A stretch of DNA of 64,000 nucleotides, taken from a bacterium (GTDB lineage: Bacteria; UBA8248). A model generated the notes under the pieces. The model did not search any database. It had not been told where the DNA came from and saw nothing but the letters and a program-made list of their open reading frames with translations. This document shows positions 17,827 through 23,017 of the stretch, in pieces. The DNA is taken from assembly GCA_965203325.1 (NCBI GenBank), contig OZ241875.1, positions 1-64,000 on the forward strand, read 5' to 3'. A program made the position numbers and the translations under genes. Position 1 is the first letter of the stretch; each line of letters begins with the position of its first letter.

Positions 17827-20349
17827 TCACCGGTAATAAACAGCTCTGCGTTTCCTCTTTATGCGGCTTGAAAATTCAGGCGCAAGGCTCCTGCGAAACG
17901 CGCGCCATCCGGCGGCGCCGCTGGCGGGCCAGGCTTCGGACGCGCGGAACCGCTCGACGGAAAGGTGTCTCCCATCGGGGTCGCCGCCCGCCTGAACGCG
18001 GAGCATCCCGCCGCGCCAGGGGCGATACACCCCCAGCCTTCGCTGCCTTCTACTCGTCTCCCGCCACAGGTCGGCTTTCATCCATTTCACCCGCTGGGGA
18101 GCGGCCACGAGGGCGCGGGGCGGACGCGCTTCGAGCCAGTCGAGGACTTCCCGTTTTCTCATCAAACTCTCGGGCAGGCGCACGAGGTCGTATCTCTTGC
18201 CCCGAAACCACTTTGCGTTGAAAGCCGGGTATCTCGATCGCAGCATGAGCAGCCAGCGCGAGCCGGTGGTTTCGACCTCGAATCCCCTCACGTCTCCTCC
18301 CCAGGAACGCAAGGAAACCCGCGCTCCGGCTCCGCTCATCCGCCAGATGGTGCGTGGGGAATGCCGCCTCCTGAAGCGGGAGTTATACGGCGCGGAAGCG
18401 CCGAGGTCGTTGATGCGAAACACGTTTTCGACCCGGATGCCCGTGGCGAACGCATTCGCGGCGAGCCGGTCTTTGGGATACCTGGAGAGGCTGAGCATCG
18501 CGCGCCAGGTCAATTGATTCTCCCGGCGCATCAGGGGAGCGAGCACGTTCCCCCAGGCGTTGAAGCCGCCGGCCCGGCTTCCGGAACCATCCACCACCAA
18601 ACCCTTTCCATCGGGGAGGCGCAAGAAGAAGGCGTCCGTGCCTCCGGCGTCGGGCAGGAGCAGCGTCGTGCGCTTCGGAGTCACGGGCCGTGCGCCGGCG
18701 TCGGGGAGGAGCAGGAAAAAGGTGAGGCCGCACACGCCCGCCCAGGCGAGTCTCCGCCGCCGCGCGCGTCTTGAGCGCAAGCCCAGGGCCATGAGTGCGT
18801 AGATCGAGGCGACGAGCCAGACCTGGGGACTCGGCGCGACGATGCTGGCCCACGGGATTTCAGAAGAGTAAGTCGACACGAGAATCATGAATTGCGCGAG
18901 AGCGCCGGTGAGCCACGTGGCGGGGAGCAGGAGCACGGCTCCGACTGCCGGTATGACGGCGGCGAGAGCGCTCGTAACGAAAGACAGCGGCACGAGCAGC
19001 GAGGCGACGGGGATGAGCAGGAAATTCACGAGCAGGCCGATGGGGTGGGCCTGGTGGAAATGGAGCGCCGTCAGCGGCGTGACCGCGGCGGTGACGACCA
19101 ATTGGATAATGGCGAGTTGGTGCGCCCGCGCGAACCACCACCCTTTCTCCCATATCCTCAGGCGCGCCTCCGGCCGCGGTAGCCTGTCCGCCGCCAGGAT
19201 GATGGCGCTCACCGCCACGAAGGAGAGCTGGAAACCCACGTCCCAGATGAAGCCGGGCTCGACCAGCAGGATGAGCAGGGCGGCGAGCAGGACGGAGTGG
19301 ATCGCGCTTCCCGGCCGCTCCAGGAGCCGGGTGAATAGGTAGGTGACGATCATGATCGTGGCGCGCACGGTCGATATCCGGGCGCCGCTCAGAAGCGCAA
19401 AGAGAATCACGAGGGGGATGACGCCCAGCGATGCGAGTTTGGACGGCGTGAGCACGAACGGGCGCAGGGGAAAAACCCAGGGCGGGAGCCTGCGCAGAAC
19501 GCCTTGCAGGGCGAAGAAGAAAAAAGCGGCGATGAAGCCCACGTGCAGGCCGCTGATGGCGAGCAGATGCGCCGCGCCCGACCTCCTGAAGGCGTCCTTG
19601 AGTTCAAGGTCGAGCCCCGCGCGCAGGCCGATGGTCATCGCTTCGATGAGACCGGCGGCGCGTTCGGGGTAGACGGCGCGCATGTGGGCGCTCATGCGCT
19701 CGCGGAACTGGAACAAAAGCCGCCGCCAGCCCCATTTTTCCCTTGGTTCCAAAACGTGGAGGCTGCGCACGGAACTGTATCCGACGGCGTGGACACCCCG
19801 GAGGCGCAGGAATTCGCGGTAGTCGAACGCGCCGGGGTTCTTGAAGCGCTCGGGAGGCCTCAGGCGCACGCGCCGGATGAGCAGCCTGTCGCCTACTTCT
19901 GGAACCTTTTCGAGCCGTGAGGCCAGCGTGAGCCGCACGACGCCGGTCATGGGAACCTCGACGCCGCGTATGAGGGCGCGTTCCACGTCGAGGTAGATGC
20001 GCGGCCTGGGCTTCTCGCCGTCGTTTCGCTCCACGGGCCGGGAGAGATGGCCCGTGACGTTCATGCGCTCGTAGGGGATCTGCCGCAGGAGGTGATGCGC
20101 GGGCGTCGCGAAGCGATGGAGCGCGGGCGCGGCGATAGAGGCGGCGAATCCCAGGAGCAGGAGGAGCGCCGCGAGGACGCCCTGCCTCTTCCCCCGGATG
20201 CGGCGGCTCAGGGCGAGCAGGACCGAGAAGGCCAATACGAGCGCAGCGGTGAGGATGGAGGCGGCCTCTCCCCGCTCGAAGTCGAAGGAAAGCCCGCCCG
20301 TCAACAGACCCGCGATGTAGCCGACAGCCAGCAGATGCAGGGGGTGCAC
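17827..20349 (-). CDS. comEC: ComEC/Rec2 DNA uptake channel protein
   Basis: NPGAFDY, SGAAHLLAISGLHVG, RATIM and DVGFQLSF, with many TM segments. The C-terminal beta-lactamase-like domain is degenerate. Confidence 0.9.
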   Translation of the reverse strand: MHPLHLLAVGYIAGLLTGGLSFDFERGEAASILTAALVLAFSVLLALSRRIRGKRQGVLAALLLLLGFAASIAAPALHRFATPAHHLLRQIPYERMNVTGHLSRPVERNDGEKPRPRIYLDVERALIRGVEVPMTGVVRLTLASRLEKVPEVGDRLLIRRVRLRPPERFKNPGAFDYREFLRLRGVHAVGYSSVRSLHVLEPREKWGWRRLLFQFRERMSAHMRAVYPERAAGLIEAMTIGLRAGLDLELKDAFRRSGAAHLLAISGLHVGFIAAFFFFALQGVLRRLPPWVFPLRPFVLTPSKLASLGVIPLVILFALLSGARISTVRATIMIVTYLFTRLLERPGSAIHSVLLAALLILLVEPGFIWDVGFQLSFVAVSAIILAADRLPRPEARLRIWEKGWWFARAHQLAIIQLVVTAAVTPLTALHFHQAHPIGLLVNFLLIPVASLLVPLSFVTSALAAVIPAVGAVLLLPATWLTGALAQFMILVSTYSSEIPWASIVAPSPQVWLVASIYALMALGLRSRRARRRRLAWAGVCGLTFFLLLPDAGARPVTPKRTTLLLPDAGGTDAFFLRLPDGKGLVVDGSGSRAGGFNAWGNVLAPLMRRENQLTWRAMLSLSRYPKDRLAANAFATGIRVENVFRINDLGASAPYNSRFRRRHSPRTIWRMSGAGARVSLRSWGGDVRGFEVETTGSRWLLMLRSRYPAFNAKWFRGKRYDLVRLPESLMRKREVLDWLEARPPRALVAAPQRVKWMKADLWRETSRRQRRLGVYRPWRGGMLRVQAGGDPDGRHLSVERFRASEAWPASGAAGWRAFRRSLAPEFSSRIKRKRRAVYYR

Positions 20350-20449
20350 GTTCTCTCCATGTAAGGAATACGCCTATCCTACACCAAAATGCGCCGCGCG
20401 CACATTCCGGGGTTGTGGAAAAACCCGGAGAGAGGAAATTTGTTTTTGT

Positions 20450-20473
20450 GTAGGTCGGACATATATGTCCGAC
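20450..20473 (+). repeat. GTAG-type REP-like palindrome
   Basis: GTAG followed by the perfect palindrome GTCGGACAT-AT-ATGTCCGAC. Confidence 0.75.
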
Positions 20474-20590
20474 ATAGTATGCGGCCCGTCGCAGGGCGGC
20501 GAAAAACCAGGGACGATGGGATGGACGCCTCCTTCCGGCAGTTTAGAATGTGGCGAGGTAACGTCACACACCGCCCGGAAGGAGACGACC

Positions 20591-21616
20591 ATGGAAGGAG
20601 TCTACATCATCGGCATCGATCTGGCGAAGAACAGTTTTCAACTCCACGGGGCGCGGGCGGACGGTTCGGTCGCGTACCGCAGGAAGCTGACGCGCGCGAA
20701 GGTGCTGGGCTTTCTGGCCTCGCAGCCGCGTTGCGTGGTGGCGATGGAGGCGTGCGCGGGGGCGCACCATTGGGGCCGGGCGCTCGGTCGTCTCGGCCAC
20801 GAGGTGAAGCTGCTGCCGCCGGCCTACGTGAAGCCCTACGTGAAGCGCCACAAGAACGACGCGGCGGACGCGGAGGCGATTAGCGAGGCGGCCACTCGCC
20901 CGACGATACGTCCGGTGGCGGTAAAGAGCGAGGAACAGCAGACGCACGGGATGCTGTACCGGGCGCGCGATTTGCTGGTGGGTCACCGGACCCGGACGAT
21001 CAACGCCTTGCGGAGTCATCTGGCGGAGTTCGGGGTCGTCGCGCGTCAGGGGCCCGTTGGCCTCACGAGATTGGTGGTTGCGGTTCGGGGAGCGGAATCG
21101 GGTCTGCCCGAGGCGGTCCGGGAGCTGGGCGAGGTTCTGCTGGAGGAGATCGCCGGCCTGAAGGCGAAGATAGAGGAGTTGGAGAGGCGGCTGTGCGCGA
21201 GCGTCCGCGATGACGAGGAGGCGCAGCGGCTGATGAGCATTCCGGGGGTCGGGCCGATAACGGCGTCGGCGATCCGGGCGTTCGCGCCGCCGATGGAGAA
21301 CTTCCGTCGGGGCCGGGACTTCTCGGCCTGGCTGGGTCTGGTCCCCCGGCAGCACACCACGGGGGGCAAGCCCCGCCTGGGGCGGATATCGAAGATGGGC
21401 CAGCGCGACGTGAGGCGGCTGTTGATCATGTGCGCGATGTCGGTGATTCGCCAGGCCGTTCGGCGCGGCGCGCCGCGGGGTTCGTGGCTGGCCCGGATGC
21501 TGGCGCGCAAGCCTCGTATGCTCGTCGCGGTGGCGCTGGCCAACAAGATGGCGCGCATCGCGTGGGCGCTGCTGCGGAACAAGGAGTTCTACAGGGAACC
21601 GGCGCCCCTCGCCTGA
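20591..21616 (+). CDS. IS110-family DEDD recombinase/transposase
   Basis: IGIDLAK, AMEAC and KNDAADA (D-E-D-D). Also SIPGVG, WLGLVPRQHTTGG and VALANKMARIAW. ATG follows AAGGAG. Confidence 0.96.
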   Translation: MEGVYIIGIDLAKNSFQLHGARADGSVAYRRKLTRAKVLGFLASQPRCVVAMEACAGAHHWGRALGRLGHEVKLLPPAYVKPYVKRHKNDAADAEAISEAATRPTIRPVAVKSEEQQTHGMLYRARDLLVGHRTRTINALRSHLAEFGVVARQGPVGLTRLVVAVRGAESGLPEAVRELGEVLLEEIAGLKAKIEELERRLCASVRDDEEAQRLMSIPGVGPITASAIRAFAPPMENFRRGRDFSAWLGLVPRQHTTGGKPRLGRISKMGQRDVRRLLIMCAMSVIRQAVRRGAPRGSWLARMLARKPRMLVAVALANKMARIAWALLRNKEFYREPAPLA

Positions 21617-21871
21617 GCGGCGCGCGGATAGAGTCGGGAGGAATGTGAGCCGGTCGGAGGAAGGGTAAGGGCAAACGGTCATCGAGACGGGATCGGGGCA
21701 ACCAGGTACATGCGACGAGCGAACCACCGAGCTCGCCGGGACGATTCGGACCCGATCCGCGCATCTCCATACGGGCCCGCGGCCAGCATGAAGCGCCGCA
21801 ACGAAGAGGCCGAATGTACGACTGAGCCGAACCGCTTTGCGCCGAACCCTCCAAAAAACCGCTTGCATTCC
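21617..21871 (+). ncRNA. Putative bridge/seek RNA region of the IS1111-type element (ends approximate)
   Basis: Stem GGATCGGG/CCCGATCC encloses an internal loop with TACATGCG and GGGACG (target matches). A second region has ATGTACGA (circle-junction match). Confidence 0.72.
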
Positions 21872-21887
21872 AAGGGGGCGTCCATGT

Positions 21888-21908
21888 ACGCATATATGCG
21901 TCCCCTAC
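21888..21908 (-). repeat. Right part of the inverted GTAG REP interrupted by the IS
   Basis: The empty site reads GGGACGCAT-AT-ATGCGTCCC-CTAC. Its left part is at 20510-20515. Confidence 0.8.
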
Positions 21909-22018
21909 ATCAGGCTCACGACCGGAACGACCCGCGAGAGAAAACACGTGGTCAGCTTCGACTGAGGGTGGTAGGCTTCGCCCCGGACCAATGGAAGGGT
22001 TCTTTTCAGAGGATGACG

Positions 22019-23017
22019 ATGCGCAGGCGCACCCTGGGGGACACGGGAATATCGGTGTCCGAGATAGGTTTCGGCACGGGCGGAATCAGCCGCCTGATGG
22101 TGGGAGATGACCGTGAGGCGCAGCTTCGCGCGGTGCGCGGCGCACTGGACGGGGGCGTGAACTTCTTCGACACGGCGATGGGCTACGGGAGCGGCAAATC
22201 GGAAGCCAACCTGGGCGCCGCGCTCAAGCGATTGGGGGCCGAAGTCGTCCTCACGACGAAGATCCGCTTGAGCGTCCAAGAGCGCGAAGCGCCCGAAGCG
22301 GCGGTTGTCGCCTCGGTGGAGAAGAGCCTCGAACGGTTGGGGCGACCATACATCGACCTGATCCAGATCCACAACTACGTGGCCCCCGAGCGGAGCTGGC
22401 CGGTGGGGGAGGTGGCCTTCGATCTCTCCGATATCTATCGTGTCGGCGGCGTGCTGGATGGTTTCAAGGAACTGCGCGATCGCGGGCTCGTGCGCTTTTT
22501 CGGGTTCACCGGGGTCGGGCATCCCGCCGCGCTGGCCGAGATGGTTGACAGCGGCGAGTTCCACACCGTGCAGGCGTATTTCAATCTGCTCAACCCGAGC
22601 GCGGCCTATCCGGTGCCCGAGGGTTTCAGCGCGGTGGATTACGGCCTGCTCATCGAGCGCGCAGCGGAAGTCGGAATGGGGGTGCTGGCGATTCGCGCCC
22701 TGGCATTGGGTGCGCTGACCGCCGAACCGAATTTCTTGGGTTTTCTGGACGAGCACCCGCCGGTTCTCTCGCTGGGTTCTGAATACGATAAAGACGTGGC
22801 GCGCGCAGAGAAACTCGCGTTCCTCGTTCGCGAGGGATGCACGCTGGCGCAGGCCGCGCTTCGATTCGTCTTAAGCCACGATGAGGTCTCCTGCGCGCTG
22901 GTGGGTTTCTCGGGCGAGGAGCAACTCGCAGAAGCCCTCACCGGTGCAGACGCCGGTCCTCTGAGAAGAGATGACATGCAGAGACTTGAAAAAATTTGGC
23001 AAAACGACTTCGCCTAG
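22019..23017 (+). CDS. Aldo/keto reductase
   Basis: RRTLGDTGISVSEIGFG, NFFDTAMGYG, TTK, SLERLG..IDLIQIH and LAQAALRF. GAGGA RBS. Confidence 0.92.
   Translation: MRRRTLGDTGISVSEIGFGTGGISRLMVGDDREAQLRAVRGALDGGVNFFDTAMGYGSGKSEANLGAALKRLGAEVVLTTKIRLSVQEREAPEAAVVASVEKSLERLGRPYIDLIQIHNYVAPERSWPVGEVAFDLSDIYRVGGVLDGFKELRDRGLVRFFGFTGVGHPAALAEMVDSGEFHTVQAYFNLLNPSAAYPVPEGFSAVDYGLLIERAAEVGMGVLAIRALALGALTAEPNFLGFLDEHPPVLSLGSEYDKDVARAEKLAFLVREGCTLAQAALRFVLSHDEVSCALVGFSGEEQLAEALTGADAGPLRRDDMQRLEKIWQNDFA

Follow-up and report, generated by a model that had tools for sequence, protein, structure and literature searches.

An intact IS1111-group element in a host repeat

Positions 20516-21890 of the window (the whole stretch of 64,000 nucleotides analyzed here) are an intact insertion sequence of the IS1111 group of the IS110 family, which measures 1375 bp when the CG at its junctions is counted once (Table 1). 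This extent is based on the alignment of the flanks of two copies and of uninterrupted paralogues of the repeat that both copies interrupt. The genome is assembled as one contig of 4.39 Mb, and the second copy in it is 100% identical over window positions 20510-21909. Identity between the copies starts at GGGACG/ATGGG and stops at ...GCGTCCCCTACA, and in the same alignment the flanks farther out are unrelated. These two identical copies are the only intact elements in the genome. Decayed fragments of related transposase genes are also present (e.g., G000:C1:1296253-1296851 and others at loci L032-L036), and one of them has a partial guide-RNA region downstream. Judging by the public sequencing runs that contain the stretch, the host is a sponge-associated bacterium.

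The transposase gene product matches Pfam families PF01548 (DEDD_Tnp_IS110, 3.8e-15) and PF02371 (Transposase_20, 1.3e-24) and scores 326.9 bits against the NCBIfam model NF033542, 'IS110 family RNA-guided transposase', for which the cut-off is 140. Plasmid genes annotated as IS5075 and IS4321 family transposases encode proteins with 41.6-41.9% identity to the product over 98% of its length, and the relatives of the product in the PDB by sequence are the transposases of ISCro4 (9t56) and IS621 (8wt6). The candidate catalytic residues are D10, E53, D90 and D93 (DEDD). The segment GLVPRQHTTG at residues 249-258 fits the motif GL-P----S/T-G, which together with a length of 330-350 amino acids is described as typical of IS1111 transposases (PMC11187229). 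The reading frame and all of the motifs are intact.

The arrangement of the ends is that of the IS1111 group, with subterminal inverted repeats, a short left end and a longer right end, as in elements described in PMC11187229 and PMC11208160. The non-coding sequence comprises 274 nt downstream of the transposase gene and 75 nt upstream. The inverted repeats are subterminal and within 7-17 bp, and the terminal extensions beyond them are short, at 7 and 3 nt with the CG counted on the left. A promoter-like sequence, TGGACG-16-TAGAAT (9 of 12 positions), occurs at 20522-49, upstream of the transposase gene, and overlaps the left subterminal inverted repeat.

Table 1 Features of the element, its predicted guide RNA and the adjoining host repeat (window coordinates)
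Feature	Position	Strand	Sequence and remarks
Host compound REP-like repeat	20409..20513	+	Outside the element; ends at the left target half (...AAAAACCAGGGA); multicopy in own genome
Core dinucleotide, left junction	20514..20515	+	CG; same CG at right junction; assignment to element or target ambiguous
Left end, 75 nt	20516..20590	+	Tip ATGGGA, subterminal inverted repeat, promoter-like site, ribosome-binding site
Subterminal inverted repeat, left	20521-29		ATGGACGCC; 9 bp
Transposase gene	20591..21616	+	341 aa; PF01548 and PF02371
Seek/bridge RNA, long form (predicted)	21676..21834	+	~160 nt; bounded by basal stem; RNA ends predicted
Basal stem (helix 1)	21676-81 / 21829-34		CGGTCA / GAACCG; 4 pairs in the window copy
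Target arm	21690..21758	+	Outer stem, 2-3 bp stem and inner hairpin
Outer stem of target arm	21690-97 / 21751-58		GGATCGGG / CCCGATCC; 8 bp
Short stem of target arm	21702-04 / 21747-49		CCA / (C)GG; 2-3 bp
5' target guide	21706..21714	+	GTACATGCG (TACATG+CG); tracks reverse complement of core and right flank
Inner hairpin of target arm	21716-20 / 21731-35		CGAGC / GCTCG
3' target guide	21738..21745	+	GGGA+CG, then AU; identical to left target and core; pairs with bottom strand
Left-tip guide	21765..21770	+	CTCCAT; complements left tip ATGGGA (4 Watson-Crick pairs, 1 G.U, 1 mismatch)
Donor-arm stems	21774..21811	+	GGCC 21774-77 / 21808-11; GCGGC 21779-83 / 21795-99
Right-tip guide	21814..21821	+	ATGTA+CG(+A); identical to the element's last bases and core
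Right end	21863..21888	+	Conserved TTGCAT 21863-68 (putative -35 of junction promoter), inverted repeat, tip GTA
Subterminal inverted repeat, right	21877-85		GGCGTCCAT; 9 bp
Core and right target half	21889..21909	+	CG 21889-90, then CATATATGCGTCCCCTACA; host repeat, not element, from 21891

Both copies occupy one and the same position of a palindrome, GGGA/CG/CATATATGCGTCCC, with flanks that read ...GGGACG on the left and CATATATGCGTCCCCTACA on the right. Uninterrupted paralogues of the repeat read ...AAAAACCAGGGACGCATATATG... (e.g., locus L026), and compared with these no bases have been added beyond the shared CG. The insertion is therefore site-specific and without target duplication. The flanks of both copies and the uninterrupted repeats bear out the two target halves that an earlier note, made from the letters of the window, had assumed. 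The repeat itself is laid out as a TGTAGG-palindrome, a spacer of ~25 nt and GGGnCGCATrTATGCGnCCC-CTACA, and occupies 20409-20515 and 21891-21909 in the window.

Genome-wide there are 72 intact GGGnCGCATrTATGCGnCCC palindromes, in which n is C in 39, T in 30, G in 2 and mixed in 1. The variant with n=A (A/T) is found in 0 of these 72 intact palindromes, and besides the two occupied sites a single free GGGACGCATATA site exists in the genome. The element is thus found in an uncommon single-base variant of a repeat that is itself abundant. Two identical copies at one position of this variant speak for recent movement as well as for site specificity.

Guide segments covary with targets and element ends

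Relatives of the element were gathered by a scan of one genome per species, which yielded 80 loci at 49-85% identity. Ends were assigned by a rule derived on the left from the core followed by ATGGnn and TGGAyGCC..., and on the right from ...TCCA followed by nnnn and the core. Based on this rule, ends and flanks were defined in 56 of 82 elements (the 80 loci, the window copy and its twin); the other 26, in which an end fell outside the contig or the inverted repeat was weak, were excluded. From these a non-redundant set of 40 elements was compiled, with one element per distinct target loop and at least 7 nt of flank. The non-coding regions of the relatives align well, and four short variable blocks stand between conserved blocks. 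Each block was cut by alignment column, and the match to the element's own target or end (cognate) was compared with the match to those of other elements (non-cognate) in 20,000 permutations.

All four segments covary with the targets or ends. The 3' target guide, compared in the same sense with the left flank, matches at 4.65 of 7 positions in cognate and 1.97 in non-cognate comparisons, and the 5' target guide matches the reverse complement of the right flank at 5.45 of 7 and 3.67, respectively. For the right-tip guide and the last five bases of the element the values are 4.97 of 5 and 3.80, and for the left-tip guide and the reverse complement of the first six bases 4.97 of 6 and 4.46. In each of these four tests the cognate value was reached in 0 of 20,000 permutations (n = 40). 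Since the relatives share ancestry, these counts overstate independence and are not to be read as probabilities; many separate switches are visible nonetheless.

At the level of single elements, at least 4 of the last 5 nt of the 3' target guide match in 31 of 40 (35 of 40 with G.U pairs allowed), and the core matches in 38. The 5' target guide reaches at least 5 of 7 in 34 of 40, with the complement of the core directly after it in 28. The right-tip guide is identical to the tip at 5 of 5 positions in 39 of 40 elements, and to the core in 39 of 40, despite a tip that varies among relatives (TGTA, TATA, TAGA, CAGA, CACA, TACA, CAAA and others). At least 5 of 6 positions of the left-tip guide agree in 31 of 40. 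The dinucleotide at the junctions equals the core encoded by the guides in 38 of 40 relatives on the left (3' target guide) and in 39 of 40 on the right (right-tip guide).

Several switches can be followed between close relatives. The window guide GGGACG goes with the target GGGA/CG, and the guide GGGCCG of a relative with 85% identity (L043) goes with GGGC/CG. Similarly, AAGGGC in L114 goes with GCCCTT and ATGGGC in its near-twin L122 with GCCCAT. Switches in the left-tip guide include CGCCAT with ATGGCG (L068) and GCAT with ATGC.

The strings that the earlier note had named are all found where it had placed them: GGATCGGG and CCCGATCC, CGAGC and GCTCG, TACATGCG (21707-14), GGGACG (21738-43), ATGTACGA (21814-21) and CATCTCCATACG (21762-73). 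Covariation across homologues, on which it had made its reading depend, was examined, and the guides do change with the targets and ends. A pairing with two bulges between CATCTCCATACG and the left end CGATGGGATG that ran through the core had also been proposed, and here the comparison narrows the claim, as covariation backs only the pairing of CTCCAT (21765-70) with the six bases at the start of the left end. We rejected a left-tip guide that covers the core, because the position that would face the first core base in the bulged pairing is complementary in only 11 of 40 elements.

Could such matches be coincidences of short words in G+C-rich DNA? Taken alone, each 8-mer is about as frequent in the 64-kb window as expected: ATGTACGA occurs 2 times against 0.68 expected and TACATGCG once against 0.78. 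The short matches are thus unremarkable by themselves, and it is their position and covariation that lift them above chance. All four segments are in the register that the 40 relatives predict, and the cognate match beats all 20,000 permutations, which leaves coincidence a negligible probability.

Four of the relatives have unusual surroundings. The one in L058 has landed within the right-end inverted repeat of a different IS1111-type element, at a site that its guides fit. In L084 a tandem repeat of the tip follows the right tip. In L044 and L072 the right end directly adjoins a stretch identical to the internal guide region of the same element, which suggests recombination between an end and DNA encoding the matching guide.

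A conserved structure of the predicted RNA in the right end

A consensus fold was computed with RNAalifold on 44 sequences (alignment A3), and the basal stem was added separately. The fold consists of the outer stem, a short CCA/UGG stem, the inner hairpin and two downstream stems. Based on this structure, 93.1% of the alignment cells are paired, compared with 22-43% when the partners are slid by 1-3 columns. Changes on both sides are seen in 18 of 30 pairs, and 0 of 500 shuffles reach any of five measures. Pairing reaches 94-98% in helices 2-4, where 12 of 15 pairs have changed on both sides, and 99% in helix 6, where 3 of 5 have done so. The basal helix 1 is the weakest (76% paired, 3 of 6 pairs compensatory). 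Helix 5 (GGCC/GGCC) is invariant and so says nothing either way. Several stems include G.U pairs, which would be A.C on the other strand, and this fits transcription of the + (transposase) strand. Folded as a single sequence the region is no more stable than shuffles (z = +0.87), and an Rfam scan of 20300-22100 at E values up to 10 returned only a spurious 12.8-bit match. The right end has a conserved secondary structure with an internal loop between stems, which is backed by compensatory changes.

If the right end acted only as DNA, through binding sites for protein, the matches would come from repeated ends and flanks and no guide RNA would be needed to explain them. ATGTACG would then simply be a second copy of the right tip within the element, and it fits this explanation that expression is seen only as contigs in RNA libraries and that Rfam has no match. 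A duplex-DNA site, however, has no need of stems that stay paired through two-sided changes (18 of 30 pairs) and that use G.U pairs. Moreover, the target, which lies outside the element, covaries with segments that complement its opposite strands, and a requirement for the RNA has been shown experimentally for the family, as described in PMC11187229 and PMC11208160. We therefore regard a purely DNA-based role as highly improbable. The earlier note had recognized in this region an IS110/IS1111 guide RNA with a target loop and donor segments, and this is upheld by guides that covary, stems that compensate and a protein of the IS110 family. It is very probable that the right-end region of the element encodes a structured seekRNA or bridge RNA of ~160 nt, on the transposase strand, which would guide recombination at the shared CG.

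Variants in public sequencing runs

The stretch is present in metagenome runs from sponges, corals and biofilms, and the contigs of 4 runs were compared with window positions 20400-22000. Among contigs from RNA libraries, one of 341 nt in run X20 (21581-21900) and one of 240 nt in run X19 (21621-21849) cover the non-coding region, and in run X18 a contig of 278 nt joins 21577-21738 to 21808-21899. These are a weak hint of expression, as the libraries may hold DNA and the contigs carry neither strand nor ends. Parts of the transposase gene have no contig cover in the RNA libraries, and this carries no weight.

Variants at guide bases are seen in runs X3, X18, X19 and X20 (sponge, coral), in which the best contig differs at ~13 positions over 320 nt overall. 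Several contigs have T at 21709 and T or C at 21706, giving TATATGCG, and these variants make the 5' guide perfect for CATATA sites. At 21741, X20 has C (GGGCCG) and X19 has T (GGGTCG), which are the two common variants of the repeat.

No circle junction (right end joined to left end) and no empty site were found among the contigs of the 4 runs, and the absence of a junction decides nothing in either direction. It would also fit another explanation, in which the RNA gene is real and the element is a silent relic whose two copies arose by segmental duplication, with no perfect site left. The genome in fact contains 0 exact matches to the guide-ideal GGGACGCATGTA, and each of the occupied sites departs at one base from what the 5' target guide would match (CATATA rather than the ideal CATGTA). 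One guide-target mismatch is, however, within the range of the relatives, and an intact frame with intact motifs and two copies without a single difference are not what a relic would lead one to expect. On either side the two copies cease to be identical no more than a few bases from the repeat, and their outer flanks are unrelated, which argues for two insertions and not a duplication. We thus consider a silent relic unlikely and retain the reading of a guide RNA that belongs to an intact element.

Comparison with known elements

The closest match is to the IS1111 seekRNAs of ISEc11, ISKpn4, ISPa11 and ISPst6 (Siddiquee et al. 2024, PMC11187229). In the IS1111 group as described there, the RNA lies downstream of the gene, with the top-strand match 5' of the bottom-strand match. 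Like the element in the window, the four have the RNA downstream of the transposase gene, and in their target loops a top-strand guide 5' of a bottom-strand guide, the two overlapping at the insertion point. They also share subterminal inverted repeats, a 341-aa transposase and a -35 box in the right end able to form a junction promoter. The description of ISPa11 includes a REP-like repeat as target, and close relatives of the four, as of the element here, are reported to have acquired new targets in nature through altered guides. The elements differ in primary sequence and in target; this comparison is by description, and the nearest named relatives that were measured are IS5075 and IS4321 (~42% protein identity). 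A further difference concerns the right-tip and left-tip guides, which show covariation here and do not appear in the Results of PMC11187229, where recognition of the ends is attributed largely to the flanks and ends.

An IS5075 copy on a plasmid (L145) has the same order of guides. On the 5' side of its loop, 9 nt are perfectly complementary to the right flank together with the two bases that precede it, and the right tip is repeated farther 3'.

The IS621 bridge RNA (Durrant et al. 2024, PMC11208160; Hiraizumi et al. 2024, PMC11208158) is similar in that one RNA has target-binding and donor-binding parts, each with two guides for opposite strands that overlap a 2-nt core. The recombinase of IS621 likewise combines a DEDD/RuvC-like domain with a Tnp domain (PDB 8wt6 is a detectable relative). 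Unlike in IS621, the RNA here is in the right end rather than the left end, and the order of guides is reversed in each part, so that the 5' side pairs with the top strand. Here and in the relatives the core reads CG, TG or AG, whereas it is CT in IS621, and the subterminal inverted repeats are long. All four guides of IS621 are described as including the core (PMC11208160); in contrast, the left-tip guide here does not cover it. In our structural reading, the donor guides would lie between the basal stem, the target arm and the donor stem instead of in a simple internal loop. Assignment to the IS621 type (IS110 group) was also tested, and the position of the RNA in the right end and the reversed guide order place the element in the IS1111 group instead. 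The guide order is that of IS1111 elements in the target arm and, by this analysis, also in the donor part.

ISPpu9 and ISPpu10 of Pseudomonas putida (Pares-Guillen et al. 2025, PMC12288879) are likewise IS110/IS1111 elements in REP sequences. That genome, like the one studied here, is described as carrying further copies of the small-RNA genes that go with such elements, at places that have no transposase. Organism and sequence are not the same, and in our genome the orphan copies flank an unrelated gene of 350 amino acids.

Guide-RNA homologues without a transposase

That gene (G000 3861453-3862502) lies between two inverted, full-length seekRNA-like copies, each of which ends in a right-end-like inverted repeat (locus L004 1497-3133, equivalent to G000:C1:3861120-3862756). 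The copies that flank its two paralogues (G000:C1:1997899-1998945 and 4228091-4229137) are truncated, and the same arrangement is found in one genome of the same genus. The protein has 260 homologue matches, so that its kin are widespread, and belongs to no Pfam, NCBIfam or Atlas family. We considered the 350-aa reading frame as a functional partner of the RNA and rejected it, as RNA-like sequence was found at 0 of 20 loci of more distant homologues. Given this and the lack of a family, the gene is read as a lineage-specific passenger between decayed right ends.

Proposed mechanism

Based on the mechanism published for the family, transcription of the RNA, its binding by the transposase and its directing of recombination would proceed here as follows. 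The seekRNA is probably processed from the transposase transcript, as has been proposed in PMC11187229; no promoter-like or terminator-like site was found in the non-coding region downstream of the gene, which fits such processing. In the target arm (21690-21758) an internal loop would be held by the 8-bp stem and the small hairpin, and in the donor arm the left-end tip would be the partner of CTCCAT. In complex with the DEDD transposase, the RNA would lead the circular form of the element, in which CG links the right end to the left end, to a GGGA/CG/CATrTA variant of the repeat. Recombination would take place at the shared CG, with GGGACGCATATATG as the insertion target and ...GGCGTCCATGTA-CG-ATGGGATGGACGCC... 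as the predicted circle junction.

Joined in this way, the ends would read TTGCAT-18 nt-TACGAT, a putative junction promoter by analogy with Pjunc of ISEc11 (PMC11187229). In the -10 box, positions 2, 5 and 6 come from the invariant A of the right tip and AT of the left tip. Junction promoters are described for the family in PMC11187229 and PMC12288879.

The bases that follow the core in the two bottom-strand guides form a further pattern. In 39 of 40 elements the core of the 3' target guide is followed by A, mostly as part of AU, with which every left end begins. At the corresponding place in the right-tip guide, A is found in 22 of 40 and another base in 18, and in 16 of these 18 that base is the first base of the right flank (0 of 20,000 permutations). 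In 18 of 40, then, 1-2 bases of the right target come after the right tip and the core in this guide. These extensions recall the handshake guides described for IS621 (PMC11208158), here on the bottom-strand guides. It is possible, although we hold it to be somewhat doubtful, that the bottom-strand guides spell both recombinant junctions and that the RNA is a three-way junction in which the basal stem encloses the target and donor arms.

Implications

The element was put forward in the earlier note as a new programmable recombinase orthologue. This is correct only insofar as it adds one more member to a family that had already been described and already been reprogrammed in the laboratory. Programmability of this element is suggested by the natural retargeting seen among its relatives. 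We conclude that it is a natural example of the system described in 2024 and not a new kind, and the understanding of how such elements work is unchanged.

What the analysis provides is an orthologue whose ends, core, natural target and four guide segments are placed with single-base precision, and which discriminates single-base variants of a genomic repeat in its host. Its 40 naturally retargeted relatives could be mined for design rules, with a guide length of ~5-7 nt in addition to the core, the acceptance of G.U pairs and positions that have to remain constant for the junction promoter as candidates. If the extensions after the core do reflect the recombinant junctions, 'handshake' pairing in this subfamily would fall on the bottom-strand guides, with an order of strand exchange mirrored relative to IS621 or with a dedicated role in excision. 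Combined with the single-base changes in guides from the sponge and coral runs, which follow the variants of the repeat, this would amount to a natural set of rules for retargeting the subfamily.
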